In this document: positions 11,716-48,579 of the stretch, in pieces
Position numbering within the stretch: position 1 is the stretch's first letter
Layout of the letters: every line of letters starts with the position of its first letter
Source: an uncultured Rickettsiales bacterium
Lineage (GTDB): Bacteria; Pseudomonadota; Alphaproteobacteria; Rs-D84
NCBI GenBank assembly: GCA_900546225.1
Contig: URBZ01000001.1
Span: forward strand, 85,124 to 149,123
Length of the DNA: 64,000 nucleotides
Reading direction: 5' to 3'
Notes under the pieces: model-generated
The model's database searches: none
Told to the model about the DNA's origin: nothing
What the model saw: the letters and a program-made list of their open reading frames with translations, nothing else
Program-made: the position numbers and the translations under genes

Positions 11716-11749
11716 TTGACAAAATAATTTTCTGTGCTATATTACCCGT
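11716..11749 (+). promoter_or_regulatory. sigma70-like promoter (TTGACA-16nt-TATATT) upstream of the Fic-like gene
   Basis: Near-consensus -35 and -10 hexamers read directly: ttgacaaaataattttctgtgctatatt. Confidence 0.5.
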
Positions 11750-11763
11750 ACATGGGTGACCAC

Positions 11764-12489
11764 ATGACAAAGACGCAAAATTATAAAATTCGTATCGAAG
11801 AAAACCGACAACAGATAACCAACATGTTATCTGGGGCGGACACGCACAAGCGGTTGAATAACATCAACTGGCTGCGTCACGAATTGTCATACACCGAACC
11901 GCGCACATTGTTTTACGTGCCGTCACGGGAACAGTTGCCCTATCTGGATTACAACAGTATGAAAAATCTGGGGACGGCATATGATTACATCATTGACAAC
12001 CCCGACACAATTATTGACATTCCTGAAATTTGCAAGTTGCACAGTATGTTATGCGCCGGCACACCGATTCAGGGCGGTCTGTTTCGCAACACGTCCAAGG
12101 TTTTGGAACTGTATGTCAACGGCAATCGCATTCATGCGCCCGAATCCACCGAGATTCCATCAAAACTGAACGAAATCGTGTACAAGTTCAATAATCAAAA
12201 CGAATGTACATTGATGCGCGCATTTAGCGCACACTATGACCTGATTATGTTACAGCCATTTGATGATTTTAACAAACGCACTGCGCGCCTGATTATGAAT
12301 TGGCTGCTGATTCAAGGCGGCTATCGCCCAATCGTGTTTAACCAGCGTACCGACAAACAGAAATACAAAGACGCCATCACCGCCAAGGCCGCCGGTGACA
12401 CGAAAAAATATACTCAATATATGTATTCATGCCTGTTGCGTACACAGAATGAAATAATCAACTTGTTAAAGAAATCGCGGGTGCTGTGA
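11764..12489 (+). CDS. Fic/Doc (Fido) family protein with degenerate catalytic motif
   Basis: Fic-fold region (GGLFRN...ESTEIPSKLNEIV). The motif position reads QPFDDFNKRTAR instead of HPFx(D/E)GNGRxxR. Confidence 0.7.
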   Translation: MTKTQNYKIRIEENRQQITNMLSGADTHKRLNNINWLRHELSYTEPRTLFYVPSREQLPYLDYNSMKNLGTAYDYIIDNPDTIIDIPEICKLHSMLCAGTPIQGGLFRNTSKVLELYVNGNRIHAPESTEIPSKLNEIVYKFNNQNECTLMRAFSAHYDLIMLQPFDDFNKRTARLIMNWLLIQGGYRPIVFNQRTDKQKYKDAITAKAAGDTKKYTQYMYSCLLRTQNEIINLLKKSRVL

Positions 12490-13409
12490 TGGTAAAAATA
12501 AAAACACTGAATCATGGTCGCGAAACATATGCCGTATATTACGGCGCAGATTTTGTGCTGAAACGCCCACTGCCGAACATGGGGCAAGTGGCCAAAGACG
12601 CATGGTTGGCCAAACAACACAAAACACAAATCGCCATTGATCGCATTCGCGCCGCAGACAACCCACTGTACAACGTGCCTGAAATGCGCTTTATCAATGA
12701 CGAAGAATATCAAATTCTGGAAGAGCGCGCCCCAGGTTACCCATTAAATCGTGATTTGTATCGCAAACTGTCACGTCGTCAGCGTTACGAAATAATAAAC
12801 AGTTTAGGCAGTTTTCTGGTCGACATGAACGAATCGATGCCTATTGGTGATGTTGAAAATCACAAAATCGCCAGCGAATTAAAATTCAGCCGTCTGGATA
12901 ACTTTATTGAAACCAAGATGTCAAATTGGTTCACAAAAAACGAGACAATCCAAATGGCGCGCATTCGTGACCAAATCGGCACATTTGAATACCCAACACG
13001 CATGGCGTGGTCACATTGCGACCTGAACCCAGGCAACGTTTTGTACGACCCCGAAACCAGTAAATTATCATTCATTGATTTCGCAGAGGCCGGATATCGC
13101 TTTATCTATCGCGACATATTTGCATCATTACAGATTGAATTGAATATATTCAAACAGGTCTATGAAGTATATTGCAAAATGCACGCGAAAAACCTGTGGT
13201 CTATGCCCAGCGCGAAAAATGACGCACTGCGCGACATTATGAAATACCGCATAATGGTTGTATGGTTGAAACGCTTTATCAAGGCAGCCGACGATTTGCG
13301 CCTTAACCCCAAAAACACCAAGAGCGAGAATAACAACCTAGAAAAGATTGCGTTTATGCGCGAACAACTGGTCAATTTTCAGAATCTGGAACGCCAGTTC
13401 CAAAAGTAA
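12489..13409 (+). CDS. aminoglycoside/choline-kinase-like phosphotransferase (protein-kinase-like fold)
   Basis: Catalytic loop HCDLNPGNVLYD, DFG-equivalent IDFAEAG, beta3 Lys in FVLKRP. Start overlaps the Fic-like stop (TGATG). Confidence 0.7.
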   Translation: MVKIKTLNHGRETYAVYYGADFVLKRPLPNMGQVAKDAWLAKQHKTQIAIDRIRAADNPLYNVPEMRFINDEEYQILEERAPGYPLNRDLYRKLSRRQRYEIINSLGSFLVDMNESMPIGDVENHKIASELKFSRLDNFIETKMSNWFTKNETIQMARIRDQIGTFEYPTRMAWSHCDLNPGNVLYDPETSKLSFIDFAEAGYRFIYRDIFASLQIELNIFKQVYEVYCKMHAKNLWSMPSAKNDALRDIMKYRIMVVWLKRFIKAADDLRLNPKNTKSENNNLEKIAFMREQLVNFQNLERQFQK

Positions 13410-13473: not shown

Positions 13474-14991
13474 TTATTTCCAGTCATCGGGGATGTCGTT
13501 ATAATCTGACAGTTCTGTGGCATCGGTGTACATACCCCCAACATTGTCGGACGTTGCTGATGGGAACACATTATACAGGTATGTCCCATCTGGATTCCGT
13601 GCCGACGGCCCTGTCAGCCCACTGCAACCGCTAAATGTGTCAACGAACATGTAATCGGCTGGCTTGCCGGACAAGTCACCAAAGAAACCAAGTGGAATTT
13701 CGCCAGTCAGGTTTTCGCACCCTGCAAATGTCCCTTGAAACATACCGTCGGTTGGTGCCCCCTTTATTCCCGTAAACAGTCCTTCTGGTAAACTGGTCAG
13801 CTTTGTGTGGTTATAAAACGTCTGGTCAAAGTTTGGTTGGCTGCCATCTGCTAGGGTTGGGAATATTGCGCCCAAACTGCCTGATATTTTTTCCGTATGT
13901 TCGGCATAATCAAAACGAATTGCAGCATAACCATCAGAGTACGCGGTTGCTTTACCGCTGATTTTAATGGTGTATGTATCCTGATTGTAATAACCGTAAT
14001 CGTGCGTTATGTATTTTTCATCTGTATCGGTTTTGGTTATCGTTTCTATAATACCTCCATCGCCCCAGTCCACATAGAATTTTCCAGCGGCAGAGATGAT
14101 AATAGCAAACGAAGAGGTGTCACTTGTGGTAGTTATGGTAAATGTGGAATCTGTCACCTCTCCGTCCGGTGGGATGGGGCCAGTGTACGTACATGCCTTG
14201 CCGCCCCACGTTGATGGGATTGACGCGTTATCTTCCAAACACGTGCCGGTGTACATATCACCGACCTGTAATGATGTTGCCGACGAGAATGCATTATACA
14301 AATACGTGCCATCTGGGCTCCGTGCTGATTTACCGGTCAGACCACTGCACCCATTAAATGTATGGGTAAACATATTGTTTTGTAACGTACCAGATAAATT
14401 ACCAAATAACCCCAACGGTATCTCGCCCGTCAGACCGGAACAGCCCCTGAATGTGCCGCCAAACATACTGTATGCAGGCGCGCCAGACAGTTCGCCAAAC
14501 AATCCCGATGGAATTTCGCCTGTCAGACCACTGCATCCATTAAATGTGGCGTCAAACATATATGTAGCGGGTGCGCCAGTTATATTTCCAAACAGTCCAG
14601 ACGGTATTGAACCCGTCAAGCCGGAACAGCCCCTGAAAGTACCGCCAAACATGCTGGGCGCTGGTGCGCCAGACAGTTCGCCAAACAATCCCGATGGAAT
14701 TTCGCCCGTCAGACCAGTGCACCCATTAAACGTCCCGTCAAACATATATGCAGCAGGTGCGCCAGATATATTTCCAAACAGTCCTGACGGTATTGACCCC
14801 GTCAGACCGGAACTGCCCCTGAATGTGCTGGCAAACATATAGACCGCCGGCGCGCCAGAAATTCCTGAAAATAGTTTTTCTGGGATGCTGCCCGTCAGAT
14901 TGGTGCAGCCATAAAACGTACTACGAAAAATCGGACGACGTCCATTTACCGTTGGGAATATTTCACCCAAGCTGCCACTGATTTTTGCCAA
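13474..14991 (-). pseudogene. C-terminal fragment of a frameshifted PKD-like/LRR-like modular surface protein (continues 15032..16867)
   Basis: No signal peptide. Begins mid-repeat. The -1 frame upstream reads IGGRATGYASSYNESGAAISFKNNKNLAKISGSLGE, continuous with the upstream ORF. Confidence 0.6.
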
Positions 14992-15031
14992 GTTTTTATT
15001 ATTCTTAAAACTGATTGCGGCACCTGACTCA

Positions 15032-16867
15032 TTATAAGACGATGCGTACCCCGTTGCACGCCCACCAATGCCGCACGGCGTACGCGCCCGCCGTGGTGTA
15101 TGTATGACTGATGGTTTGATTAGTTGTATCGGTCTTTTCTATTTTCTGAAATGCACTGCCGTCGCCCCAGTTGACATAAAATTTCCCTGCCGCAGAAATA
15201 TTGAAACTGAAACTGCTGGTGTCACTGGTGGTGGTCAACTCAAACGGGTATTCCGGTTCTGGTTCAACATATGTGCATGTCGCCCCGCCCCACGTTGATG
15301 GTATCGATGCATTATCTTCCAAACACGTGCCAGTGTACATATGCCCCGTGTATGAGTTTGTGGTTGATGGGTACACTTCATACAAATATGTACCATCTGG
15401 GTTACGTGCGGACTTTCCATACAAGCCCTTGCACCCATAAAATGTATGATAAAACATTGTGGTGGCACGTTCACCCGACAAATTACCAAACAGCCCCAGT
15501 GGAATTTCCCCTGTCAGACCACTGCACCCCTCAAACGCCCATGCGTACATACTGCTGGCGGCTTCGCCCGAAATATTACCGAACAAGTTTGATGGGATTT
15601 CACCCGTCAAACCACTGCACCCATAGAACACATAGCGGAACATACTGCCCGCGGGCTCACCACGCAGATTGCCAAATAATCCAGATGGAATACTGCCCGT
15701 CAGACCACTGCAACCATAAAATACGCTGTTAAACATGCTGTTAGCCGGCGCACCCGACAGATTGCCAAACAGTCCAGATGGGATACCTGTCAGACCTTTG
15801 CAGTTGTAAAATGTGCTGTCGAACATGTCTTTGGCCGGCGCACCATACAGATTACCAAATAACCCAGATGGAATACTGCCCGTCAGACCACTGCAATCAT
15901 AAAATAAGCTTTTGAACATACCGATGGCTGGGGCACCAGATATACCAGCGAACAGATTTTCTGGGATGCTGCCCGTCAACCCAGTGCAACCGTTAAAGGT
16001 GTTGCTGAACATATAGCTCGCTGGCGTACCTTTTATTCCCGCAAACAAATTCTCTGGAATAGAGCCGGTTAATCTGCTGCACCCCAAAAACGTGCTGCTG
16101 AACATATTACTGACCGGTGCACCAGATATACCAGCGAACAGATTTTCTGGAATACTGCCCGTCAAAGTAGATCTGCCATAAAACGCCCTGTAAAACCTCG
16201 GTTGACTGCCATTCGCCAATGTTGGGAATATTGCACCCAAACTGCCCGAAATTCCGGTTAAATGTGAAGTTGATTCGAAACTGATTGCCGCGGTTGTGGC
16301 ACTGGTTGAATATTTCGTTGTCAGACCGCCGATTTTAATATCGTACGCGCCCGCTGTGGTGTATGTATGACTAATGTTTCGAGTGTTTGTATCGGTCTTG
16401 GTTATTGTTTCTACCGCGGTGCCATCGCCCCAGTCAACCCAAAATTCGCCCGCAGCAGAAATCTTGAAACTGAAACTGGTTGTATCACTGCTGGTGGTAG
16501 CAGTGAACGGGAATGTGCGCGGCTTTTTAATCAGGTTTTTAATTGCGTTGTCCACCGTTCGTTTGTTCACGGCGTATGACGTGGCATACGATGTGCCCGA
16601 ATATACCTTGGACGAACCGCCAATCTTTTTATTGGCAATATCAATCGCCGCCATCAGGTATTTCATATTCGCCGCAACCGATTTGTTCGTCAATGCCGAA
16701 TTATACCCCACAGAAACATTCCACTTTGCCAAAATCGCATCATGAATATATTTGACATTCACAACCGGCGACATTGTTGTGGGTTCTGCCACAGCAGCAG
16801 GCGCAACCGTCACATTCAATGCGACGATCATACACAGTAAAATTTTGAATACGCGGTGCAAACCCAT
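15032..16867 (-). CDS. secreted modular protein: PKD-like beta-sandwich domains plus roughly 33-aa LRR-like repeats (N-terminal part of a frameshifted gene)
   Basis: Signal peptide. WGDG..HTY..AG.Y motif occurs twice. Repeats of the form GxIPxxLFGxxSGAPAxxMFxxTFxGCSGLTG. Confidence 0.65.
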   Translation of the reverse strand: MGLHRVFKILLCMIVALNVTVAPAAVAEPTTMSPVVNVKYIHDAILAKWNVSVGYNSALTNKSVAANMKYLMAAIDIANKKIGGSSKVYSGTSYATSYAVNKRTVDNAIKNLIKKPRTFPFTATTSSDTTSFSFKISAAGEFWVDWGDGTAVETITKTDTNTRNISHTYTTAGAYDIKIGGLTTKYSTSATTAAISFESTSHLTGISGSLGAIFPTLANGSQPRFYRAFYGRSTLTGSIPENLFAGISGAPVSNMFSSTFLGCSRLTGSIPENLFAGIKGTPASYMFSNTFNGCTGLTGSIPENLFAGISGAPAIGMFKSLFYDCSGLTGSIPSGLFGNLYGAPAKDMFDSTFYNCKGLTGIPSGLFGNLSGAPANSMFNSVFYGCSGLTGSIPSGLFGNLRGEPAGSMFRYVFYGCSGLTGEIPSNLFGNISGEAASSMYAWAFEGCSGLTGEIPLGLFGNLSGERATTMFYHTFYGCKGLYGKSARNPDGTYLYEVYPSTTNSYTGHMYTGTCLEDNASIPSTWGGATCTYVEPEPEYPFELTTTSDTSSFSFNISAAGKFYVNWGDGSAFQKIEKTDTTNQTISHTYTTAGAYAVRHWWACNGVRIVL

Positions 16868-16875
16868 TGCCCCCT

Positions 16876-17268
16876 TTATTCCGTCGGCAACGGTTGGTCG
16901 GGCACAATCAGCGACCCAGAAACAGTATACTTGCCCGCCATAGTTTGCACCGCCGATGATGCTGTATCAACACGATTTGATACCGCCGAATAAACCGCAT
17001 GCGCCGATGGATACTGGGTATCGGTTGAACTGGATGAAATAGTGGTTGTTTTATTGGACGCGTTTTCCTTGGCATCAATGGACGCCGTCAACGTGGTCTT
17101 TAACGCATTTGTGATTGTGTTTACATAACTGACCGCAGCCAGTCCACCGGTTGTTGTGCTGGTGCCGCCGCCGGGCTCTGATACGGCGGCATTCACATTA
17201 CCAACAACGCCCCATATCATGAAAACAGCCAGTAAAAACAACAAGCGATGTTTCATAGTTTTTTGCAA
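16876..17268 (-). CDS. small secreted protein, paralog of 48580..49011
   Basis: Signal peptide. Conserved C-terminal block TQYPSAHAVYSAVSNRVDT...AGKYTVSGSLIVPDQPLP shared with the paralog. Confidence 0.5.
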   Translation of the reverse strand: MQKTMKHRLLFLLAVFMIWGVVGNVNAAVSEPGGGTSTTTGGLAAVSYVNTITNALKTTLTASIDAKENASNKTTTISSSSTDTQYPSAHAVYSAVSNRVDTASSAVQTMAGKYTVSGSLIVPDQPLPTE

Positions 17269-17381
17269 ATCCTACAATCTTCCGATGTCCATAATAATAC
17301 TTTATTTACACGTATCTCGTCAACAAGATTTATATTTTTTCGCCACATAAAAAGGCCCGTGCCATTCGGCGCGGCTCTACT

Positions 17382-24352: not shown

Positions 24353-27300
24353 ATGGCAACAAAACAGTACCGCAAAAATACCAAGAATCCAAAGCGTAAA
24401 TTGTTTTCCATACGCAAAATTGCGCTGGTCGCGTGCGCGATTGCAATTATCGCGGGCGCATTTGCATTTATCGCATTGCGTCGCGGTGACAATGCGGCAA
24501 CAAAAATGCACACGACATTTAACACCCCAACCGCGGCAACATTTACCGATACAAACAATGTAATGTTCACGTCTGACAATATTCCCGATGTGAACAATGC
24601 CCGCACGTTGGGCCGCATTCAGCCATTGGTTATTTCTTATAATTGGACGTCCGGCCCATATAATCAGGCCGTGCGCCCCGACGCAACAAACAATGACATC
24701 ACAGCCGGCACAAAAATCAGTCCATTTGTTCGTGGCACATGGACACTGCGCGGTGGTGGCGATGAATTGGCGTTCACACCCGACACCGATTGGCCCGCCG
24801 ACACGCGTTTCACTGTACGCGTTGCGGACAATCTGGTAAATTCAGACGTTGCGATTGACGATAAAACGATTTCTTTCACAACCCCGCGCATCACCGCCAC
24901 GGTGGACAGTTTCAACCTGTACCCTGCACCAAGTGCAAAGAAATCCGTAATTGGCGTTGCCGTTATATCATTTAATTACCCGATTATTACAACGGAATTT
25001 AACGATAAATTGACCGTCAAACTGGACGGGGCTAAATTGGACTTTACGGTAAAGTTTGATAAATTCCGTCGCACGGCCATAATCACAACCGCGCCGGTAC
25101 AAATCACCAATACCGACCAAATTATTCGCCTGAAATTAAACCGCGTTTCGCCCGCCGCTGGCAATGGCGCAACCCAGAAATTGACCGCGCACACAACCGT
25201 TGCCGCCGCTGATAACATATTCAAAGTATCTGAAATCACAACCACCGCGGCCGACGACAAAAACGGCAATGCGCAACAGTTGGTTCTGGTGAATATGACC
25301 GCCACCGCCGCGTCAAACACCGATTGGGGTAAATATGTTGAAATTTACCTGTTGCCTGAATACAAAACCGATGATGAAAAGTCAGACGAAACCCCACACC
25401 AATGGGCGGACGACGAAATCACCCCTGATGTGATTGCGCGCGCAAAAAAAATCCAAACAAAACTTGTCCCATTTGTAAATCCGACGGGCGTGTATCAATA
25501 CGCATTTTCATATGACGTGTCCGCTGCGAACAGATTTATTTTCGTGCGCGTTGCGTCCGGCTTTGAATCTGCGTCTGGCTTTTTTGTTAAAAATGGCGCG
25601 TCACGCGTTTTGTCCGTCGCATACCCTGTGCGCACGGTAAAAATCGCTGGCAGTGGCGCATTATTATCACTGGCGGGCGATAAAAAATTGGGCATTATGG
25701 CACGTGGTGGCGCAACCGCCGCATACGTGAATTTATCAAAGGTTAAATCATCTGAAATCAATCACTTGATTTCCCAGACATATAATATCTTTGCCGAAAA
25801 CATAGAATTTAAGGGCTGGTCATTTGGCGTTGACGATATGGCGGTTGTGTTCCGCAAAACAATTCCTTTTTCTGACCCGTCTATGACCAAAACCAATTAT
25901 GCGTCGATTGATTTGGGCGCATATCTGGACAGAACAGGTGTCGACAAAACCGGTATATTTGTAATTCAGGTCGCCCCCGACGCCACCGCCGCGCAGTACA
26001 GTGACCGTCGTCTGATTTTACTGACCAATTTAGGAATTATACGCAAGGAAAATCAAAACAATTCGTCCACTTTGTTTGTGGTAAATCTGTCTGATGGCAC
26101 GCCCGCCGCCGACACGGAAATAAACGTACTGGGACGCAATGGCAACGCCGTATGGGCGGGACGTACCGATGATGACGGCCACGCCGATATTCCTGAACTG
26201 TCATGGAACGAATATCGCGATGCGCGCGAACCCGTTGCGATTGTTGCGCGCCGTGGTGACGATGTTTCATTTATTCCATACAACGCAACCGCACCAATGG
26301 TTGATTATTCTAAATTTGATGTCGATGGCGAACATTATTATGGCGCAACACCACTGAACGCATTTGTCTTTACAGATCGCGGCATTTACCGCGCGGGCGA
26401 AGATATGGTTGCCGCCGGCATCGTAAAGAATAAATCGTTCAAGGCACTGGCTGGGATTCCTGTACGTGCCGAAATCACCGACCCACGCGGGCGCGACGCA
26501 TTGACAAAAACATTCACACTGGCGGGCGACGGAATGTTCGACATTAAATATACAATTCCCGCAACCGCCGCAACTGGCGAATGGCAGGTTCGCCTGTATT
26601 CATTGGACAATCGCGGGCGCATTGACACGTCACTGGGGGTGGCAACATTCCGCGTTGCGGACTTTGTCCCAGACAATATGAAAATCACCACCATCATCGC
26701 CGGTGGCGACACAGACGGTTGGATTGGGATTGATGGTATACGCGCGAATGTGTCCCTGCGTAATTTATTCGGCACCGCGGCAACGGACAAGCGTATTACA
26801 GCGTCTGCAACACTGACACCAACGAATTTTACATTTGATGCATTTCCTGATTACATATTCACACCAAACTTTATTTCGGGCACAGGTCTGGCCGATGGGA
26901 CGGCGCGCGCGTCCCAGACATTCACGGCAAATATGCCCGACGCGCACACCGATGAAAACGGCGCAGCAACAATTTCTATCAATTTTGACGATGTAATCCC
27001 AGATGGCACATATATGCTGAAACTGACAACCGCAGGATTTGAATCAGCATCGGGGCGCAGTGTTCGCACAACCACAACCGCACGCGTATCAAATGCAAAA
27101 TATCTGGTCGGATATCACGCCGATGGTGATTTGAAATACATCGCACGCGGGGCGTCGCGCAATGTCAAATTGGTTGCGGTTGACCACACGGGCGCGGTTG
27201 CGACGGCGGACAACCTGACCATTCGGACGGTACACCGCGAAAACCTGACCAGTTTGGTCAAGGATTACAGTGGATACTATAAATATCAAACCGTCACCCG

Positions 27301-30082
27301 CGACAAAGTCATCAGTCAGGGCGCATTGGACATCGCGCCAGACGGCAAAACAATCAAACTGGACACCGCAAACGCTGGCACATATTTTGTCCAGATTCTG
27401 GATTCAGCGGAACGCATTTTGGCAAACATAGAATACTTTGTTGCCGGCAATGAAAACAGCGAACTGAAATCAGACACCAACGCCGAACTGAAAATCAAAT
27501 TGTCGTCAAACGCGTTTGCCGCGGGCGACAAAATCGATGTCAGCATTACCGCACCATACACCGGTGCGGGCCTGATTACGATTGAACGCGACCGCGTGTA
27601 TGCTTACAAATGGTTCAACGCCAACACCACAACATCGGTTCAGCAAATCACCCTGCCCGATGGATTCGAAGGAACGGGTTACATCAACGTGTCATTTGTG
27701 CGCAATATCACCAGCCGTGATATATTCACAACACCATACGCGTACGCCGTTGCACCATTTGCGGTTAAAAACGATACCCGCAAAATTGGCGTTAAACTGA
27801 CCACGCCGGACGTCGTGCATGACCATAAATTACCCATTAAATATGAATCAGATCGTGATGCGCGCCTGATGATATTCGCCATAAATACCGGCATTTTACA
27901 GGTTGCAAAATACGACCTGCCCCGTCCACTGGCGTACTTCTTCAAAAAGGCCGCCTTACAGGTTTCCACGTACCAAACACTGTCGCTGTTGTTGCCAGAA
28001 TACAAAATTCTGCGTGAATTTGCAAAAACCGGCGGTGGTGATTTCGAACCAGATATCGACGCCGGCATGACACTCAGCAACCCGTTTGGCCGTCGCACAT
28101 TGCCACCGGTTGCGTTCTATTCGGGGATTATTGATACCAAGGCCGGCAAATCGGGCGAAATCACATTTGATTTGCCAGAATATTTTAACGGCGCGGTGCG
28201 CGTATTTGCGGTTGCCGCAAACAACACCGCCGTGGGCAGTGCGGACGCCAGCGTTCGCGTCCAATCACCGGTTATGATTACACTGTCTGCCCCACTGATG
28301 GCGGCCCCAAACGACACGTTCGACATTGGTGCGGTTATATCAAATCAGGTCACGCACAGTGGCGCAAACGCGACCGCCGACATTTCGCTGTCGACATCGG
28401 ACGGATTGACACCAGCGGCAACAACTGGGAAAATCGCCGTTCCTGAAAATAACGAAAATGTTTTCACGACATCTGTTCGTGTTGGCGACGTGTTGGGCAA
28501 TGCCGACATTAAATTAAAAGCAACAATCAACGGTGCGGACGATGCATCTGGGGTTGCAAATGCAACGGCGGCCCTGTCCGTGCGTCCAATAACAACGTTT
28601 GGAACACGCGTGCACAGTGGCACAATAAATGCCCACACCGCAAAAATCCGTGGATTCCACATTGATATGTATCCGGAATTTTCCGCACGCACACTGTACG
28701 TGTCACCACGCGCAACCGTGCTGGCACGCCCATTGGTTCAGTATCTGGCGCACTATGAATTTCCATGCACAGAACAACTGGTATCGCGCGCATTGCCATA
28801 TGTCGTTGCACCAAACGATGACACGTTGGGAACGAATTTTGATGAATCCAGCGCGAAAATTGCCGATACAATCCGCCAGTTGCAATCGCGTCAGAATATA
28901 AACGGTGCATTTGAATTGTGGGCAACAACCGATAGTTTCCCAATACCTGCGACCGCCACAAACGTCCAGACAACCGCATATGTCGCCCAGTTCTTGACAC
29001 TGGCGCGCGACGCGGGGTTCAATGTACCACAGGATATGTTGGGTCGCGCGATTGGATTCTTGCGTGATTTTGCCGGTGCGCCGATTGAAAGCGACGATGA
29101 TGCTGCGGCGGTTGCGCACGCAATCTTTGTCATAACGCAAAATGATTACATCACAACAAATTACATCAATTTGTTCCAAGAATATACGGACAAAAACATC
29201 AAGAATTGGCAGCGCACGATTTCTGGCGCATACGTCGCCGCCGCATATAAAATGATGAAGCAAGATGATGCGGCGGGCAAACTGATTGCGCAATACCGCA
29301 CCACATCGCCAAAGTTCGAATACGTATCGATGTATGACAATAATGTTGCAAATGACGCAATGTATAGCTTTATCAACCGTCGGTATTTTGATGCCGCGGC
29401 GGACATGCCCGACAGTGTCATAAAATACGTTGCGGGTGGCGATTATTCGTCATACACATCGGCAATGGCAACATTGGCATTGATTGGCGATGCCGCCACA
29501 GCCGCGCCCGCGGTCACAATTTCGGCAAATGATGTGACCATCACGGGCACGACATCGGGCGACACACAGGTTTTTGACATTCCGGCGGACGCCACCACGA
29601 TTGATATCAAGTGCGAAAAATGTGACCGCACGAACGGCCTGTATTACGCATTGGTTCAGACCGGTTATCCACGCGTGGTCACCGAATCCAGCAACGGTAT
29701 TTCCGTATCGCGTGAATATTACAATGAAAACGGTGAACGCATCACGTCCGCAAACATCGGTGACAGAATCACGGTTCGCATCTTTGCCCGCGCACGTGGT
29801 GGCGACGTAATCCCAAGCGTTGCAATCACCGATTTACTGCCGGCGGGATTTTCTGTTGAGGCCGCGGTCACGGGCGACCAGAACTTTGCCCAGATTCGCG
29901 AAGATCGTGTTGTGATATTCACCGACCTGACGCGTGCATCGGCAACATTTGAATATACCGCCGACGTCACCGCCGCGGGCACATTCAGTGTTCCACCAAT
30001 TCACGCCGAATCCATGTATAATCCATCGGTAAATGCAACCGGTGTGATCGGCACATTCACGGTTTCAAATGGTGAAAAATAA
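24353..30082 (+). CDS. yfhM: bacterial alpha-2-macroglobulin (YfhM/ECAM-like) with intact thioester
   Basis: 1909 aa. N-terminal membrane anchor. Thioester motif CTEQ at 28766-28777. Followed by overlapping pbpC. Confidence 0.85.
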   Translation: MATKQYRKNTKNPKRKLFSIRKIALVACAIAIIAGAFAFIALRRGDNAATKMHTTFNTPTAATFTDTNNVMFTSDNIPDVNNARTLGRIQPLVISYNWTSGPYNQAVRPDATNNDITAGTKISPFVRGTWTLRGGGDELAFTPDTDWPADTRFTVRVADNLVNSDVAIDDKTISFTTPRITATVDSFNLYPAPSAKKSVIGVAVISFNYPIITTEFNDKLTVKLDGAKLDFTVKFDKFRRTAIITTAPVQITNTDQIIRLKLNRVSPAAGNGATQKLTAHTTVAAADNIFKVSEITTTAADDKNGNAQQLVLVNMTATAASNTDWGKYVEIYLLPEYKTDDEKSDETPHQWADDEITPDVIARAKKIQTKLVPFVNPTGVYQYAFSYDVSAANRFIFVRVASGFESASGFFVKNGASRVLSVAYPVRTVKIAGSGALLSLAGDKKLGIMARGGATAAYVNLSKVKSSEINHLISQTYNIFAENIEFKGWSFGVDDMAVVFRKTIPFSDPSMTKTNYASIDLGAYLDRTGVDKTGIFVIQVAPDATAAQYSDRRLILLTNLGIIRKENQNNSSTLFVVNLSDGTPAADTEINVLGRNGNAVWAGRTDDDGHADIPELSWNEYRDAREPVAIVARRGDDVSFIPYNATAPMVDYSKFDVDGEHYYGATPLNAFVFTDRGIYRAGEDMVAAGIVKNKSFKALAGIPVRAEITDPRGRDALTKTFTLAGDGMFDIKYTIPATAATGEWQVRLYSLDNRGRIDTSLGVATFRVADFVPDNMKITTIIAGGDTDGWIGIDGIRANVSLRNLFGTAATDKRITASATLTPTNFTFDAFPDYIFTPNFISGTGLADGTARASQTFTANMPDAHTDENGAATISINFDDVIPDGTYMLKLTTAGFESASGRSVRTTTTARVSNAKYLVGYHADGDLKYIARGASRNVKLVAVDHTGAVATADNLTIRTVHRENLTSLVKDYSGYYKYQTVTRDKVISQGALDIAPDGKTIKLDTANAGTYFVQILDSAERILANIEYFVAGNENSELKSDTNAELKIKLSSNAFAAGDKIDVSITAPYTGAGLITIERDRVYAYKWFNANTTTSVQQITLPDGFEGTGYINVSFVRNITSRDIFTTPYAYAVAPFAVKNDTRKIGVKLTTPDVVHDHKLPIKYESDRDARLMIFAINTGILQVAKYDLPRPLAYFFKKAALQVSTYQTLSLLLPEYKILREFAKTGGGDFEPDIDAGMTLSNPFGRRTLPPVAFYSGIIDTKAGKSGEITFDLPEYFNGAVRVFAVAANNTAVGSADASVRVQSPVMITLSAPLMAAPNDTFDIGAVISNQVTHSGANATADISLSTSDGLTPAATTGKIAVPENNENVFTTSVRVGDVLGNADIKLKATINGADDASGVANATAALSVRPITTFGTRVHSGTINAHTAKIRGFHIDMYPEFSARTLYVSPRATVLARPLVQYLAHYEFPCTEQLVSRALPYVVAPNDDTLGTNFDESSAKIADTIRQLQSRQNINGAFELWATTDSFPIPATATNVQTTAYVAQFLTLARDAGFNVPQDMLGRAIGFLRDFAGAPIESDDDAAAVAHAIFVITQNDYITTNYINLFQEYTDKNIKNWQRTISGAYVAAAYKMMKQDDAAGKLIAQYRTTSPKFEYVSMYDNNVANDAMYSFINRRYFDAAADMPDSVIKYVAGGDYSSYTSAMATLALIGDAATAAPAVTISANDVTITGTTSGDTQVFDIPADATTIDIKCEKCDRTNGLYYALVQTGYPRVVTESSNGISVSREYYNENGERITSANIGDRITVRIFARARGGDVIPSVAITDLLPAGFSVEAAVTGDQNFAQIREDRVVIFTDLTRASATFEYTADVTAAGTFSVPPIHAESMYNPSVNATGVIGTFTVSNGEK

Positions 30083-32465
30083 CAAATGGTTTAACCGCAT
30101 TACGCAACATATACGTCGTCACAAAACGACGTATATTTGCATATTCGGGCTGGTTGTGGTGTATTGGGCCGTCCGCCTGTTTTTTATTCCACCCCTGTTA
30201 TCAGACACACATTTTTCCCGCGCGTATTATGACCGTAATGGCACGCTGATGCGCATGACACTGACGGCGGACGACAAATACCGTCTGTTCACACCGTTGG
30301 ACGAAATCAGTCCGGACGTCGTCCGCGCCACCGTATTATACGAAGATAAATATTTCTGGTATCACCCAGGGGTAAATCCCATATCACTGGCGACCGCCAC
30401 ACTAAATTGGGCACGTGGCGTACCCCACCCCGCGGGCGCATCCACCATCACGATGCAGGTTGCACGAATGCTGTACGGCTTGGACACACGGCGTGCGGGC
30501 GGAAAACTGGCACAGATTGCCGCAGCAATTTATATCGACGCATTTCATTCAAAACGCGAAATCTTGCAAGCATATTTGAATTTAGCACCATATGGCGGCA
30601 ACATAGAGGGCATTGGTGCCGCATCAATAATTTACTTTCAACGCCACGCGCATGACATCAGCACGATTGAGGCAATCACCCTGTCCACCATTCCCCAAAA
30701 TCCTGTAAAGCGCGGTTTGAATACCGAAACCGGTATGCGCAACATTATGACAATGCGCGCTGATTTGGTTCGGCGTTGGATTGCGGCATACGGCGATGAT
30801 GGCGACCTGATGACATTGGCGGCAATGCCACTGAACGTGCACGGTACGCGCGATTTGCCATTCCATGCCCCACATTTTACCCAGCGCGAAATCACACGCC
30901 ACAGTAATTACTGGGCGGACATTGGCCCACACAATTCATACGTTACAACAACACTGGACATCAATTTACAGAAACAACTGGAACGGACACTGACCGCCCA
31001 GATTGATGCGCAACGCAGTCGTGGCGTAACAAACGCCGCCGCAATATTGGTCAATTATAAAACGATGGAAATTTTGTCCTATATCGGTTCGGCTGATTAT
31101 TTTGATAAATCAATTTATGGCGAAAACGATGGCGTACTGGCACGACGCAGTCCGGGGTCAACACTGAAACCACTGATATATGCCGCCGCCGCCGACCGCG
31201 GTCTGATTCACGGTATGACACTGCTGCGCGATGCAAAAATCAACTTTGGCGTGTACGCACCAGAAAATTCAGACAGCGAATTTTACGGCCCAGTATTGGC
31301 GCACACGGCACTGACGCATTCGCGCAACATTCCCGCAATAAATCTGGTGCGGGGAATTGGCGTACGAAACTTCTATGATTTGCTGGCCAAATACGGCATC
31401 GATAACCTGAAATCCCCAGATCATTATGGTATTTCCATCGCACTGGGCGGTGCCGAGGTGTCAATGTTTGAACTGGCACAAATATATACAGGTCTTGCCA
31501 ATCTGGGGGGCAAATACGACATTCGTTCGGAATTGTCCGCCCCAATGCGACATGACGCACAAATCCTGTCGCCAGAGGCAAACTTTCTGGTTCTGGACAT
31601 GTTGGCACGCGGGGCCGCGCCAACAACGCACATTCCATTTACCAAGCGCACCACGTCCCCCATACGACACTATTGGAAAACAGGCACATCATCATCATTT
31701 CGTGATGCATGGACGGCGGGAATATTTGGCGACTATGTTTTAATCGTGTGGGTTGGGAATTTTGACGGCACACCAAACAACGCTTTCTCGGGCGCACGCG
31801 TTGCCGCGCCAATCTATTTCGCATTAGCGGACACCGTCATAAAATACGATGCCGCACGCGGGCGACCGGTTCAGAATAATAATTTCCTGCGAGATGACAT
31901 GAACATTGCCCAAATTGATATGTGCGATGGCGTGGGCGGTATTGCCGGCCCATATTGCCCGCATGTCGTGAAATCGTACTTTATCCCCGGCGTGTCACCC
32001 ATTGACACGTCCAGTGTATATCGCGCAGTTCCGATTGATAACCGCACAGGTCTGCGCGCGTGCAATGCAAATCCAAACACAACACACATGGCGGTGTATG
32101 AATTTTGGGATTCTGAATTTCTGGACATGTTTGTGCGCGCTGGCATTCACCGCAACACCCCGCCCCCATACATGCCGAATTGCAATCTGGACGATATTAC
32201 GGACGACGCGACACCAACCATCGTCAGCCCCGCCGATGCGACGAACATAGTTATTACCGATGGGGGCACAGCGGCCCAAATCACATTTCAGGCAATCGCA
32301 CCAACGCGCGATGCAAAAATATTCTGGTTCTTGGACGATGAAATTATCGGCACAACCACGTCCGGCGCACCAATGACGCACACCGTTCCAATGGGTGAAC
32401 ACATTGTGCGCATTGCCACCAGCGATGGCGGCGGCAGTTCCGCGAAATTCACGGTTATTCAGTAA
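30069..32465 (+). CDS. pbpC: penicillin-binding protein 1C (transglycosylase/transpeptidase)
   Basis: GT51 N-terminal region (YEDKYFWYHPGV). Transpeptidase motifs. 14-nt overlap with the alpha-2-macroglobulin gene. Confidence 0.85.
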   Translation: MVKNNKWFNRITQHIRRHKTTYICIFGLVVVYWAVRLFFIPPLLSDTHFSRAYYDRNGTLMRMTLTADDKYRLFTPLDEISPDVVRATVLYEDKYFWYHPGVNPISLATATLNWARGVPHPAGASTITMQVARMLYGLDTRRAGGKLAQIAAAIYIDAFHSKREILQAYLNLAPYGGNIEGIGAASIIYFQRHAHDISTIEAITLSTIPQNPVKRGLNTETGMRNIMTMRADLVRRWIAAYGDDGDLMTLAAMPLNVHGTRDLPFHAPHFTQREITRHSNYWADIGPHNSYVTTTLDINLQKQLERTLTAQIDAQRSRGVTNAAAILVNYKTMEILSYIGSADYFDKSIYGENDGVLARRSPGSTLKPLIYAAAADRGLIHGMTLLRDAKINFGVYAPENSDSEFYGPVLAHTALTHSRNIPAINLVRGIGVRNFYDLLAKYGIDNLKSPDHYGISIALGGAEVSMFELAQIYTGLANLGGKYDIRSELSAPMRHDAQILSPEANFLVLDMLARGAAPTTHIPFTKRTTSPIRHYWKTGTSSSFRDAWTAGIFGDYVLIVWVGNFDGTPNNAFSGARVAAPIYFALADTVIKYDAARGRPVQNNNFLRDDMNIAQIDMCDGVGGIAGPYCPHVVKSYFIPGVSPIDTSSVYRAVPIDNRTGLRACNANPNTTHMAVYEFWDSEFLDMFVRAGIHRNTPPPYMPNCNLDDITDDATPTIVSPADATNIVITDGGTAAQITFQAIAPTRDAKIFWFLDDEIIGTTTSGAPMTHTVPMGEHIVRIATSDGGGSSAKFTVIQ

Positions 32466-35941: not shown

Positions 35942-36003
35942 AATAAAAACCTGTTTTTTCACTTGCCCGCAATTTCATTATTTTGCTAAGATTATTGACA
36001 AGA

Positions 36004-38919
36004 ATGAAAGGGATTAAACTGTTTTTCGCTGTGTGTCTGGGCATTGGCGCGGCTTTTGGCGCAAATGCCACGGATTCTGACGCCACCGCGCGCGCGGCGA
36101 CGCGTCGCACATCGGGCACTGTTTCGACCCGTGGCGCACAATCTGCGGCAACCGCACGTGGCACGGCGCCTAGCACGCAAACGTCACAAAAGGCGTCCCA
36201 AAATCCACGTAATCGCGCATCAACAAATTCCCGCGACACCGCCACCAACGCGTCGGCAATCACATCGGGACGCAGTGCGATTACTGCGATATCACCACGC
36301 ACAACATCAACCGTTCAATCACGCGCAACCGCCCCCGCCACCACGGCCAAGGGGGTAATTACCCGCACCGCAACCACGCCCACGCGAACCACATCGCGCA
36401 CCACAACCACGGCAACAACAAATGCACGCACGACCCGCACCGCGGGCGTTCGCACAACTGCTGCGCGTGCCGCCACTGATACAGAAACAACAAAACTGAC
36501 CGCATCAGACATCATAAATCGCGATTATAAAAAGTGTCGCGAGGTGTACTATAACTGCATGGACGAATTTTGCGCGAACAAGGACAGCCAACTGAAACGC
36601 TGTGCATGTTCGTCACGCGTCAACGAATTTGACAGTGCCAAGAAAAACCTGAGCACGGTCGAAGAAAAAATGTTGGATTTCAACCAACGCTTGCTGACCG
36701 TCAACATGGACAAAGAAGATGCCGCCGCATTGAACAAGGCGACCGAGGGCGAAACCGCATTTCAGAAAAAAGATACGTCAAAATCCAAACAGATGCTGGA
36801 CGAAATTGCCAAGAAATTAAATACCAGTTTCAACGACAACAATTTCAACCAATCGCTGGGCGCGATATCATTGTCATTAAACGCCGACGCGGCATTTGAT
36901 ACGGTGGATTCTTTGTCGGGCGCATCCACCACGGCCAAGACCGGCACAGCCCTGTATTCTGCGGCATTGCCAATTTGTCGCGAAATGGCAGCAGAGGTTT
37001 GCACCGACGACGAATTACCCATTGTCGAAAGCGGCTATCAAATGACAATCGAACAGGATTGCAACACGGTCGCAAAATCATACGAAACCCAGAATGATCA
37101 AGCCCGCGAAAAATTACGCGAGGGCAGCGCGCTGCTGGACATGTCACGTTTGGACATTTACCAGAAACGCAATTCCGATGACATTTTGACATGCAAGCAA
37201 AAGATGCTGACCATGCTGACGGATTCGACCGTATGTGGCACAAATCTGGACAAATGTTTGGACACCACGGGCCGTTACATCGACCCATCAACGGGCGAAG
37301 CGTTCTTGACATCTGAATTGTCAAACCTCAGCAATTTAATCAGCCGCCCCGACACCGACCAATCGTGGACAAGCGTCCCTGGGAATCAGGCATTTGTTTC
37401 CTACTTAAATTCAAAAAAGAAATTCCTAGAACCCGCAATGGAAAATTGCCAAGACATCGCCGACAGCGTATGGGACGCATTTGTCGAAGATGCGTTGGCA
37501 CAAATCAAGTTGGCCCAAGACAGCAAACTGGAAGAAGTCCGCCAGAGTTGTACAACCCTGACCGCACAGTGTTTAACCGACACCGCAAAAACATTACAGG
37601 ACTTTGATGCGCGCGCCCTGTCCACATTTGGCGTGGCGGCCGACCGCACCGTAAACGCAATGTGCGCCGATGTCCGCAATGCGTGCAGCGCACTGTTAAA
37701 GACAACGGGCGGCGACGTTGATTGGAACACCGGCGTCAGCGACATTACCACGGACAAGACATACGACACAGTAATGCAGACGTGCCGCGAAATTGGGCGT
37801 GCATGCATTATTCAGTCGTGCAAGTCAATTTCTGGTAACTTTGGTCTGTGCGAAAACATTCAAACATCGGTCAACCGCAAGTCCATCATCAACCGTACGG
37901 CCTGTTGGGACGAGGTCAAAGAATGTGTGGCCAGCGCAGGCAGCGAATCGGTTGAAAACATTTGGGCACGTTTGCTGGCCGCCGAAACAATCCAGAACGG
38001 CACATTCTATAACATGATGTACGGTTATGAACCCAGCGATGATGCACCAATTTATGACATTTGCGCGGCCGATAAAGAATGCGAAATTACAGACAGCACA
38101 GAATGCAAGGTTTGCCGTATCTCTGAACGTCTGTGGGGTAATTGCGAATACAGCCCTGTCACCCTGTTGCAAGACGACGATTCGCACAACAAGATTATTA
38201 TGGACGGCGATACGGAAACATTGCTGAAATGGTTTGCGAAAAATACCGGCACATCACAAAAGGCCGACAGTTGCCGCGACACATCATGTGCAATCGGATT
38301 TATTCCACTGGAAGATAACGGGACAATTTCATGTCTGCCCAGCAGCAGTATGTCTTCTGATGGCAAGGCGTGTGCCGATAAAACATTTGTTGTCGGAACA
38401 AACAATGATGGTACAAAATTCACCAACTGTTGCCAGACGAATAAAAAAGATGCATTTGGCAACTGCTGCGCCAGCGACACGGTAACCATAAATGACCGAG
38501 AACTATGCTTGCCAGCCAGTTCTGCTAATGGTGTATCAACCGAATCATTTATCTTTAATAACAATGACGCATATTACCCAAATGCCAGTTATAAATTAGT
38601 CTGCACCAGCGGGGACATAATCGCCGGCGGAACTCCAGATCCAGCCAACGGATTTCCAAGCGGAAACACGGTAACATGCAAAGGGGGGCGTTTTGTACTG
38701 ATTACCACACAATTCCCATATTATGTGACGCCGCAATACACCGGTAAAGGTACGTATTCGCCATACCCTGCCGCATCATATAATGCCGACAATGATACAA
38801 AGTGCACCATGAGCTGCACCACGGCGGATGGTTGCAAGTTTGAAGAAGGCGTTGCCACAAAAGCAGACCCAACAAAATGCCTGCCTGCCCAACCAACCCA
38901 CTGGTTGGTGACACCGTGA
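36004..38919 (+). CDS. large secreted protein: Thr/Ala/Arg-rich low-complexity region followed by a long Cys-rich region
   Basis: Signal peptide MKGIKLFFAVCLGIGAAFGANA. About 140 aa of T/A/R repeats. More than 50 Cys. Confidence 0.6.
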   Translation: MKGIKLFFAVCLGIGAAFGANATDSDATARAATRRTSGTVSTRGAQSAATARGTAPSTQTSQKASQNPRNRASTNSRDTATNASAITSGRSAITAISPRTTSTVQSRATAPATTAKGVITRTATTPTRTTSRTTTTATTNARTTRTAGVRTTAARAATDTETTKLTASDIINRDYKKCREVYYNCMDEFCANKDSQLKRCACSSRVNEFDSAKKNLSTVEEKMLDFNQRLLTVNMDKEDAAALNKATEGETAFQKKDTSKSKQMLDEIAKKLNTSFNDNNFNQSLGAISLSLNADAAFDTVDSLSGASTTAKTGTALYSAALPICREMAAEVCTDDELPIVESGYQMTIEQDCNTVAKSYETQNDQAREKLREGSALLDMSRLDIYQKRNSDDILTCKQKMLTMLTDSTVCGTNLDKCLDTTGRYIDPSTGEAFLTSELSNLSNLISRPDTDQSWTSVPGNQAFVSYLNSKKKFLEPAMENCQDIADSVWDAFVEDALAQIKLAQDSKLEEVRQSCTTLTAQCLTDTAKTLQDFDARALSTFGVAADRTVNAMCADVRNACSALLKTTGGDVDWNTGVSDITTDKTYDTVMQTCREIGRACIIQSCKSISGNFGLCENIQTSVNRKSIINRTACWDEVKECVASAGSESVENIWARLLAAETIQNGTFYNMMYGYEPSDDAPIYDICAADKECEITDSTECKVCRISERLWGNCEYSPVTLLQDDDSHNKIIMDGDTETLLKWFAKNTGTSQKADSCRDTSCAIGFIPLEDNGTISCLPSSSMSSDGKACADKTFVVGTNNDGTKFTNCCQTNKKDAFGNCCASDTVTINDRELCLPASSANGVSTESFIFNNNDAYYPNASYKLVCTSGDIIAGGTPDPANGFPSGNTVTCKGGRFVLITTQFPYYVTPQYTGKGTYSPYPAASYNADNDTKCTMSCTTADGCKFEEGVATKADPTKCLPAQPTHWLVTP

Positions 38920-40223: not shown

Positions 40224-41552
40224 ATGAGAAAACTGATATCGCTTTTTTTATCATTGTTTATATCTGTACCCACGTTTGCAGTGGTTACAGACGAGGAATG
40301 CCGCAGCAAGAGCAAAAGTGAATGCGGCGCAACGGCTGGTTGTGGCTGGGAAAAGTCATCTGGTGTTCTTGGGGGGTCTCGTTCATGCAAGGCATGCCAG
40401 AAAGACGAGTACAGTGAAAAGGTTACCAGTACAGATAACAATGCACTGGAGTGCAAACAATGTTCCGGCATCACCCAATACACAAACCCTGATACCGGCG
40501 AAGTTGTCACATACGGTTCTAATTATTACAAATACACTTTGGGCGCAGGTCGAACTATAACCGACTGCTATGCAAATTGTGAATTGATGGTAAACAATTT
40601 ACCAGAAAGCACCGGAAAATGGGTATTAGCAGGTCCTGCTACAGCATATTATCCAAACAAATGCCAATTTGCATGTTATGCATCCAGCGACTATTACAAC
40701 ACGTGCGTATCATATTACCACCCATGGAAAGACAAAGCACAAGAACGGGACACAACTGTATGCGAACCCAGTTGGATTTTTATGAACAGCCCCGCAGAAA
40801 TTGCGTCCAAATTGCCCAATGATGCAACCAGTGATGACACATATTTTTGCAAAAATGCGCAAACGGGTATTTATATGTTGCTGCAACCATCGGGAATAAC
40901 AATAATGTGTTCTGCACAGTCGTGCCAAACTGGTTACCATTTGGTAAGTGTTAAAAGTTTGATAAATGATTCGTTGCCCGGCAGTGACGCCAATGAATAT
41001 TACTGTAAATCAGACACGCTAAATATTCCAAACGCAACATTATTCCAAACATGTGTATCTGATACACACCCATGTTCCGATGATTTCGGCACAGAGTGCA
41101 AAATCACAATTAATAATGTACAAAAAACCGGTACGGTTGGTGGTAACGCGGTATGGAATGGTATCAACGCATACAAAACCGACCAATGCACATGCACGGT
41201 TTCCGACGACGTTGCGACCACGGGCACATATAAACATGTATGCAAACGTTCAACCACATCTAATACTTGGGACGGGGCCAGTTGTGAAACAACCATAAAA
41301 ACATGCAATTCGGGCTATTGCATCGTTGGTTATGATGCCAATAACAAACACCAAACATGCGACACCGCACCAAAGGGATATTACAGCGATGGTCGTGGTG
41401 TTCTGGAATGCGACAAATGTCCCGCCGGAAAAACCACTGCAAGCACGGGCCGCACATCCGTCGGCGAATGCACGTACAGCACAGAAACACAATTCTGTGA
41501 CGGTGACGGTGTCGATTGTTTCAAACTGAATTACAGCAGTTTAGGCAGCTAA
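40224..41552 (+). CDS. secreted Cys-rich protein with ephrin-receptor/TNFR-like (GCC2_GCC3-type) Cys motifs
   Basis: Signal peptide. Motifs such as CDTAPKGYYSDGRGVLECDKCPAGKTT. Confidence 0.55.
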   Translation: MRKLISLFLSLFISVPTFAVVTDEECRSKSKSECGATAGCGWEKSSGVLGGSRSCKACQKDEYSEKVTSTDNNALECKQCSGITQYTNPDTGEVVTYGSNYYKYTLGAGRTITDCYANCELMVNNLPESTGKWVLAGPATAYYPNKCQFACYASSDYYNTCVSYYHPWKDKAQERDTTVCEPSWIFMNSPAEIASKLPNDATSDDTYFCKNAQTGIYMLLQPSGITIMCSAQSCQTGYHLVSVKSLINDSLPGSDANEYYCKSDTLNIPNATLFQTCVSDTHPCSDDFGTECKITINNVQKTGTVGGNAVWNGINAYKTDQCTCTVSDDVATTGTYKHVCKRSTTSNTWDGASCETTIKTCNSGYCIVGYDANNKHQTCDTAPKGYYSDGRGVLECDKCPAGKTTASTGRTSVGECTYSTETQFCDGDGVDCFKLNYSSLGS

Positions 41553-47242: not shown

Positions 47243-47282
47243 CAAAACGCGCCCAACAAAATTATTTGTTGGGCGCGTTTTT
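47243..47282. terminator. bidirectional intrinsic terminator between cysS(+) and 47283(-)
   Basis: acgcgcccaacaaaattatttgttgggcgcgt flanked by A-run and T-run. Confidence 0.7.
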
Positions 47283-48578: not shown

Positions 48579-48579
48579 G

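Follow-up and report, generated by a model that had tools for sequence, protein, structure and literature searches.

Several described systems resemble, each in part, a two-gene cassette that occurs at two loci in a 64,000-nt stretch of DNA from an uncultured Rickettsiales bacterium (contig URBZ01000001.1), a stretch referred to below as the window. In each cassette, the gene for a small exported protein stands directly upstream of the gene for a large exported protein with leucine-rich repeats (LRRs), and comparisons of sequence and predicted fold indicate that both genes are assembled from parts of phage tail fibres and receptor-binding proteins. Together the two products probably form a surface or secreted binding device. 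Among phage systems, one of similar arrangement is the gp37/gp38 pair of T2/S16-type Straboviridae, where gp38, located on the distal tail fibre, is described as a receptor-binding protein that is monomeric and modular (PMC12032242, PMC3157838). As in the window, the gene for a fibre part is directly followed by that for a modular binding protein, which in the window has a dedicated N-terminal domain. The window pair has no sequence relationship to gp37/gp38 and differs in its Sec signal peptides and its setting as chromosomal bacterial genes. Whereas the head of gp38 is a polyglycine sandwich, that of the window protein is an LRR solenoid, and the assembly of the window pair is a proposed one.

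Two further phage proteins are related to the pair in sequence. In BppL, the receptor-binding protein of the lactococcal siphophages TP901-1 and Tuc2009, the segment that aligns with the conserved block of the small protein is the neck, GDETIAGKKTF(T/S)G.V.V, which links the shoulder and head of the trimer. Unlike BppL, the window small protein ends after the neck, with no head domain, and has a signal peptide. The distal part of gp35 ('tail protein I', 1008 aa) from the P2-like Klebsiella phage ST16-OXA48phi5.4 is homologous to the large protein, with a VDYGDG sandwich, tandem F..C..L..IP..LF LRRs and a cap ending DDYDDLPGNW. In gp35, however, this part is fused to a baseplate gpI-type N-terminus without a signal peptide, the repeats are ~27 residues long as against 31 in the window, and both the N-terminal three-unit domain and a small partner gene of the window type are missing.

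Turning to bacteria, the PARCEL family has a tandem 25-26-residue repeat, and PARCEL and BspA-type surface proteins have a variable repeat number and unknown ligands (PMC2996958). Export, an LRR-type solenoid, an F..C..L core and a variable repeat number are common to the window protein and to the BspA-type (LRR_5) and PARCEL/DUF285 proteins. The period in these proteins is 23-26 residues rather than 31, the window has neither above-threshold matches to them nor the DNA dyad symmetry of PARCEL, and only the window protein combines a fixed sandwich-LRR-cap module with an N-terminal domain and a partner gene. The MAT fibres of Bdellovibrio are likewise chromosomal, signal-peptide-bearing and phage-fibre-like, with variable binding tips and several paralogues per genome; they are single chains with a beta-rich domain, conserved and ~130 aa long, after the signal peptide and with trimeric tips (PMC10769870). 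Compared by description, the window system differs in that the fibre part and the head are on separate polypeptides and a monomeric LRR structure is predicted for the head. Most of the small proteins cannot contain the ~130-aa MAT domain, since they are only ~45 aa long when mature.

The gene pair at two loci

Both loci lie on the minus strand, locus 1 at 13474..17268 and locus 2 at 47283..49011. Their parts are as follows.

16876..17268, minus strand: small gene 1, 130 aa as called from the ORF (open reading frame); signal peptide, two strand-helix units (AAVSYVNTI, QYPSAHAVYSAV), neck-like block RVDT..QTMAGKYTVSGSLIVP, tail DQPLPTE
13474..16867, minus strand: large gene 1, a three-module LRR protein of 1130 aa after removal of one extra G
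15032..16867 (611 aa) and 13474..14991 (505 aa), minus strand: the two ORFs of large gene 1 as read
15224..16867 (approximate), minus strand: first module of large gene 1, with the signal peptide, the three-unit domain at the N-terminus, a PKD-like sandwich whose WGDG is at 16432, 8 LRRs (31 aa each) and an internal cap ending CLEDNASIPSTWGG
14128..15223 (approximate), minus strand: module 2; sandwich (WGDG at 15169), 6 LRRs, internal cap, with the frameshift inside
13474..14127 (approximate), minus strand: module 3; sandwich (WGDG at 14067), 2-3 LRRs, terminal cap ending LSDYNDIPDDWK
48580..49011, minus strand: small gene 2, true start uncertain; its longest ORF encodes 143 aa
47283..48578, minus strand: large gene 2, for a one-module protein of 431 aa; signal peptide, N-terminal domain (~30-112), sandwich (117-181), ~5 LRRs (~200-385), cap ending LSDYADIPEAWR

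A first-pass annotation of this DNA had reported the same gene pair at two minus-strand loci, and ORFs were located at both. Its other descriptive claims also hold: the C-terminal block is common to the two small proteins; the WGDG...HTY sandwich, the GxIPxxLF..GAPAxxMFxxTFxGC repeats and the GKSARNPDG...IP..W tail occur in each large protein; there is one module at locus 2 and there are three at locus 1; and the last module has its own tail variant, DYxDIPxxW(K/R) in terminal position against CLEDNASIPSTWGG in internal ones. Several of its measurements needed correction. The small and large genes are separated by 8 nt at locus 1 and 1 nt at locus 2 rather than by 2-9 nt, and the repeat is not ~33 aa long, as the DNA period of 93 nt corresponds to an LRR unit of 31 aa. 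In place of 5-7 repeats per module there are ~5 at locus 2 and 8, 6 and 2-3 in modules 1, 2 and 3 of locus 1, and the protein called giant is, at 1130 aa, merely large. By a six-frame motif scan of the window, the family signatures are confined to these two loci.

Sec-type signal peptides are read from the sequence on both small and large proteins. Ahead of the ATG of each large gene stands a Shine-Dalgarno-like motif (AAGGGGG for locus 1, GGAGA for locus 2), which lies inside or past the end of the small gene; with gaps of only 8 and 1 nt, these motifs fit one transcription unit per locus, and at locus 2 a strong terminator comes after the large gene. Small gene 1 has a near-identical counterpart at the syntenic locus L009. 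The mature part of the small gene 2 product reads AAIASRDYVEQV...QYPSAKSVYDGLSYRVDT..QTLAGKYTVSGEFVVPDQPLPALKAIPETE, and the start of this gene is uncertain because its first ~40 codons (48890..49011, minus strand) are not conserved in orthologues. These codons include a first hydrophobic segment, the orthologues beginning near the second; a GGAGAGG motif lies 14 nt upstream of the ATG at 49011.

The small gene tracks the N-terminal domain of the large protein

The pairing had been noted within the window, and a co-occurrence check shows that its conservation extends far outside it. In all of the first 12 loci (12/12), a small exported ORF with the family motif ends 1-31 nt before the large gene or slightly overlaps it. 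Across the window and 91 loci, a motif-bearing ORF is found upstream of 44 of the 63 large genes with the N-terminal domain, as against 0/13 relatives that have the sandwich and LRRs without that domain (Fisher p = 2e-6, for loci that are related and not independent). Viewed from the small gene, 45 of 47 motif-bearing ORFs stand directly upstream of a large gene with the N-terminal domain. The 13 relatives that lack it have a Cys-rich N-terminus, a different small domain, or nothing in its place. The small gene tracks the N-terminal domain of the large protein, not the LRR module.

Since the pairing follows that domain, and since it is present in single copy whatever the number of modules, the N-terminal domain is the probable partner of the small protein's conserved end. 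No fusion of the small and large genes was seen across the loci, and separate polypeptides would suit a stoichiometry other than 1:1.

The small proteins as stubs and fibres

For the small protein, word-index searches returned 15 relatives at first and 256 subsequently, and an exhaustive profile search of 1.84 billion representative proteins placed 146 representative clusters in its family. Most relatives are pre-proteins of ~65 aa (~45 aa mature) with the consensus IASxxYVxxxVxxKVDTSAxANQTMAGxYTVSGTLxVPTPPLPxAE after the signal peptide; the window's two proteins are longer versions with one extra unit. The family as a whole spans 45-aa stubs to 750-aa fibres, and the C-terminal block is the sole universally conserved part. 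At one end of this range, in more divergent loci, the upstream gene is much longer. The upstream partner at locus L064 (1364..2986) is a 540-aa ORF (522 aa from the first start codon) that matches Pfam Collagen with 93 bits, and the partner at L078 (62..2329), of 755 aa, has repeated STDTQYPSAKAVY units, with at least 8 units of tail-fibre type. Further long upstream genes ending in the conserved block occur at L022, L031, L053 and L080, and additional family members of 259-453 aa have signal peptides. The collagen-like partner also carries two inserted globular segments, and it and the L078 partner retain a C-terminal end of the form ...STPPLP or ...TPTLPTP. One long match to the profile, P0325, is a SprB-repeat protein and was taken as spurious.

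A profile of the small-protein C-terminus matches the PDB only at the BppL neck (Tuc2009, E = 7e-5; TP901-1, E ~1.5e-3). Pfam BppL_N, whose cut-off is 25.8 bits, reaches 20.6 and 14.6 bits in two relatives only, and no BppL-type head follows on the same chain, the small proteins stopping 3-12 residues past the neck-like block. The strand-helix unit recurs in P0347, a 657-aa protein without a signal peptide that matches Pfam Phage_tail_C (E = 1.3e-10), and the small-protein profile matches tail-fibre units of the ASxxYVDxxVxGKxDTSA type 5 times in P0347 and 9 times in P0349; these matches show a unit in common, not that the window proteins are virion components. PHROGs gave no usable match for the small proteins, and a PDB sequence search with a 203-aa relative found nothing.

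Collagen and the BppL neck are trimeric elements. For that reason the family is best read as exported trimeric stubs and fibres with a common distal end, and the small protein most likely forms a parallel trimer.

Domains and fold of the large protein

At least 684 homologues of the large protein were found. Homologues of either protein that have a source name are all called hypothetical protein and come from metagenome-assembled genomes (MAGs) of Alphaproteobacteria or from unclassified bacteria; the genomes of the relatives are labelled as uncultured or MAG Alphaproteobacteria, one of them from water-buffalo colon, and the closest, at 98% protein identity, is labelled uncultured Rickettsiales bacterium UMGS1180. 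As the first reading had supposed, this is not a described family: curated family libraries cover neither protein, and no named homologue is other than hypothetical.

An AlphaFold2 (AF2) model built on a 50-sequence alignment, with a predicted local distance difference test score (pLDDT) of 90.7, divides the large protein into a signal peptide, three strand-helix units (33-47, 63-79 and 96-109), a beta-sandwich of strands only (117-181), a solenoid to which each stretch of 31 residues contributes one short strand, and a C-terminal cap. The LRR-like repeats of the first-pass annotation are thus predicted to form an LRR solenoid, whose modelled fold is similar to that of solved BspA-type proteins. 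LRR units are usually ~20-30 residues long, and the 31-residue unit lies beyond that range. The N-terminal domain occurs once per large protein, whatever the number of modules, and a PDB sequence search with its profile found nothing. The PKD-like character of the sandwich, also claimed at first reading, is borne out in the 611-aa ORF, which exceeds the Pfam gathering thresholds for PKD_4 (29.5 bits against 27) and PKD (26.1 against 23.5; PF00801 / PF18911). The 431-aa protein reaches 18 bits, below threshold, and 22/50 relatives match at E <= 0.01. Membership of the PKD domain is marginal.

Membership in other families was rejected, with profile scores below threshold or absent. Pfam LRR_5 (PF13306) has no match at E <= 1 in any window protein and in 0/50 relatives at E <= 0.01; a precomputed PF13306 match exists in one distant relative, P0076. 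TIGR02167 (PARCEL) gives 17.6 and 25.0 bits, under its cut-off of 30, DUF285 matches neither the window proteins nor any of the 50 relatives, and no inverted repeats of at least 30 nt, as the dyad symmetry of PARCEL would entail, occur in 13474..16867. PamR, a pilus protein of the candidate phyla radiation (CPR; NCBIfam NF058578), gives 44.5 and 23.4 bits against a cut-off of 300 and covers only the 37-residue WGDG region. Antisense ORFs over the LRR-coding repeats, at 14096..14842 and 15271..15732 (plus strand), translate to PNNPDGISPVRP... repeats and most likely reflect the periodicity of the codons rather than genes.

In a tblastn search of phage genomes, the large protein matches the 'tail protein I' of Klebsiella P2-like phages. 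The BLASTP alignment to that of phage ST16-OXA48phi5.4 (E = 6e-12) takes in the sandwich with its VDYGDG motif and many of the LRRs and reaches the very end of the C-terminus, where GLDDYDDLPGNW is aligned with LSDYADIPEAW. Foldseek against viral models returned phage LRR, BspA-family, '26-residue repeat', PKD and collagen-plus-LRR proteins. By this alignment and these matches, the sandwich-LRR-cap unit is a module of the phage receptor-binding type, in front of which the window proteins have a signal peptide and an N-terminal domain specific to the family. In the phage genome (L092, 3236..6262), the baseplate part of gp35 is followed by the sandwich, the ~27-residue LRRs and the window-type cap; for gpI to be extended by a receptor-binding LRR part seems unusual, and gp35 is not annotated as having one.

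Variation in module number and mobility of the cassette

The locus-1 gene is structurally variable among close relatives, in keeping with the earlier claim of a fast-evolving locus. Its syntenic counterparts have one module (L006, L007), two (L009, L021) or four (L019), as against three in the window. In comparison with contigs that are ~95.5% identical in the flanks, locus 2 is collinear and locus 1 mosaic; module 2 of the window matches module 1 of L019 at 94%.

Around locus 1, the order tyrS, M23 peptidase, the pair, APH-like kinase and Fic is kept in relatives with large proteins that share only 40-48% identity with the query. The locus-2 pair adjoins cysS in the window's species, while its 72% orthologue sits between the gene for ribosomal protein S11 and rpoA (L002, 5673..7296; also L003, L004, L017 and L018). 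The different site of the orthologue implies that the pair moves as a cassette. Placement between S11 and rpoA puts it inside a highly expressed conserved gene cluster.

Large gene 1 is interrupted at one site.

15071..15072, minus strand: frameshift site, GG in the window as against a single G in the related assemblies L019 and L020

The change is one extra G in GTGCGGCATT (plus strand, 15071-15072), where the two related assemblies read GTGC-GCATT. Deleting it gives the intact 1130-aa ORF. No homopolymer or short-repeat tract is present at the site, and the extra G could reflect an error in sequencing or a pseudogenising mutation of the ordinary kind.

Expression signals and neighbouring genes

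Two further signals flank the genes, one at each locus.

17294..17323, minus strand: sigma-70-like promoter match just 5' of small gene 1, TTGACG, 18-nt spacer, TATTAT; 10/12
47244..47281, minus strand: terminator-like intrinsic hairpin directly 3' of large gene 2, a 17-bp stem and then a T run

The promoter is a consensus match and counts as weak evidence, because such matches are no more numerous in the region than in shuffled sequence. The neighbours in the window are housekeeping genes, namely tyrS, an M23 peptidase gene, cysS, clpX, polA and those for pyruvate:ferredoxin oxidoreductase, alpha-2-macroglobulin with PBP1C and a Pom-like porin; no other phage genes are found near either locus. 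Beside locus 1, a Fic-domain gene overlaps the start of an APH/choline-kinase-like gene (11734..13409, plus strand), an arrangement conserved in L006, L007 and L009. The alpha-2-macroglobulin gene (1909 aa) is followed by an overlapping gene for a PBP1C-type penicillin-binding protein (24353..32465, plus strand). Bacterial alpha-2-macroglobulin and PBP1C are a known pairing.

Adjoining locus 2 and divergent from it is a gene for a Cys-rich exported protein (49500..50462, plus strand) with CxxGYY...CxxCPxG repeats and no Pfam match. Similar Cys-rich proteins are encoded 3' of the pair in L006 (5787..7274), L007 and L022 (2409..3149). In L087 (804..3413) a Cys-rich region is fused ahead of the large protein's N-terminal domain, and in L057 and L075 such a region takes the place of that domain. 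The Cys-rich protein is possibly a third, optional part of the system. Elsewhere in the window, a 442-aa Cys-rich exported protein (40224..41552, plus strand) matches Pfam Ephrin_rec_like (E = 3e-7), and the Cys-rich family seems expanded in this genome. In a 978-aa protein (35983..38919, plus strand), which has a signal peptide and no Pfam match, a long low-complexity region is rich in Thr/Arg/Ser and the rest is Cys-rich.

A proposed two-chain binding device and its alternatives

With the gene pair, the export signals, the folds, the phage homologies, the conserved pairing, its link to the N-terminal domain and the variation in module number in hand, we infer small-protein trimerisation, physical docking, a cell-surface location and an adhesive function. 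On the reading that we favour, at about even odds, the two Sec-exported proteins, both made from phage receptor-binding parts, join up: the upstream one, as a trimeric stub or fibre, docks the other, a monomeric LRR adhesin, by its N-terminal domain. Each locus would then be a small operon of an uncultured gut alphaproteobacterium for two Sec-exported proteins. The upstream protein would consist of a signal peptide, one or more tail-fibre-type strand-helix units (IASxxYVxxV, QYPSAKxVYxxL), a homologue of the interlaced trimeric neck known from siphophage receptor-binding proteins and a proline-rich VP(T/D)(P/Q)PLP tail, and the downstream protein of one N-terminal domain (three strand-helix units) and 1-4 head modules, each with a PKD-like sandwich, a 31-residue LRR solenoid and a cap. 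The trimeric stub or fibre would dock the single N-terminal domain as a trimeric phage fibre carries its monomeric tip adhesin. The LRR heads could bind a ligand on host, food-particle or microbial surfaces, and gain, loss and recombination of whole modules and LRR units would diversify their binding capacity. A more specific version, which we put forward tentatively and consider possible though on the unlikely side, is a split exported adhesin in which a stub or fibre of variable length (45 to >700 aa, some collagen-like) captures, through its neck and proline-rich tip, the pseudo-threefold N-terminal domain of a monomeric LRR protein with 1-4 swappable heads; such a two-chain surface fibre, mismatched in symmetry, would have no described counterpart in cellular organisms.

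A number of observations weigh against the docking proposal. The match to the BppL neck spans just ~21-25 residues, and the AF2 monomer of the small gene 2 product is poorly defined, with a predicted template-modelling score (pTM) of 0.28 and a C-terminal coil. For 19 of the 63 large genes that carry the N-terminal domain, no upstream partner could be detected. Checked as a candidate for the most conserved part of the large protein, that domain proved no more conserved than the others, and although its units look similar by eye to the unit of the small protein, its hhalign comparison with the small family, in which the expected motifs aligned, was not significant (probability 0.5%). The commonest small proteins, at ~45 aa mature, have no obvious anchor, and the proposal accounts neither for retention on a diderm outer membrane nor for passage across it.

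Some of these observations would sit more easily with a large protein that is an ordinary BspA/PARCEL-type LRR surface protein and a small protein that is an unrelated co-transcribed exported product, either a periplasmic helper or a separate surface peptide, with no stable complex between them. The unpartnered large genes (19/63) and the non-significant hhalign link agree with that account, as do the weak TIGR02167 signal and a solenoid fold like that of the BspA-type Bacteroides proteins. It does not readily explain why the small gene is tightly coupled to the large one and follows its N-terminal domain (44/63 versus 0/13), or why the C-terminal neck-like block alone is universally conserved in proteins of 45 or 750 aa, a pattern that fits a docking end, and we regard it as rather unlikely. 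The same block bears on the idea of a peptide and its receptor, in which the proline-rich tail of the small protein would lie in the concave LRR groove as a lid, adaptor or cognate ligand, like plant peptide hormones in the ectodomains of LRR receptors. The plant-like LTGxIPxxLF motif of the repeats and the small protein's C-terminus, predicted with moderate confidence as an extended coil, are in its favour; however, the block is homologous to a trimeric phage element and not to a free peptide, operons have one small gene whether they encode 1 or 4 modules and 2 or 16 LRRs, and LRR-module relatives without the N-terminal domain never have a small gene upstream. This account is improbable.

The similarity of both proteins, in sequence or fold, to phage tail components could also mean that the genes encode structural components, tail fibres or receptor-binding proteins, of a prophage, gene-transfer agent or tailocin, and that these are assembled in the cytoplasm onto a particle. 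Such virion assembly would not use the typical Sec signal peptides that both proteins carry. The neighbours are housekeeping genes (tyrS, M23 peptidase, cysS, clpX, APH-like kinase with Fic) with no other phage genes near either locus, and the locus-1 position is syntenic among relatives whose large proteins are ~40-48% identical, all of which makes a particle origin very unlikely. Still harder to credit is the idea that locus 1 is a phase-variable contingency gene switched by its frameshift, possible phase variation having been raised in the first-pass annotation. There is indeed one frameshifted copy of a surface-type gene, as claimed, but the change is a single G to GG outside any simple-sequence tract, so phase variation is not supported; both related assemblies are in frame, and a sequencing or assembly error or a plain mutation accounts for the change equally well.

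Biological significance

The libraries and papers searched contain no description of this family. It does not form a new category, in that it combines an LRR surface-type protein, phage fibre parts and the re-use of phage fibres by bacteria, as seen in MAT fibres (PMC10769870); its novelty lies in the split over two genes, the stub that ends in a neck, a dedicated domain at the N-terminus and the 31-residue LRR. The host bacteria are common, uncultured members of human and animal gut communities. With hundreds of members, several copies per genome, a position among housekeeping genes and structural variability between near-identical strains, the family is a strong candidate for their main surface-recognition device. 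If the docking proposal is true, the pair would be the second example, after the Bdellovibrio MAT fibres, of phage receptor-binding parts re-used as bacterial exported adhesins, here split over two genes.

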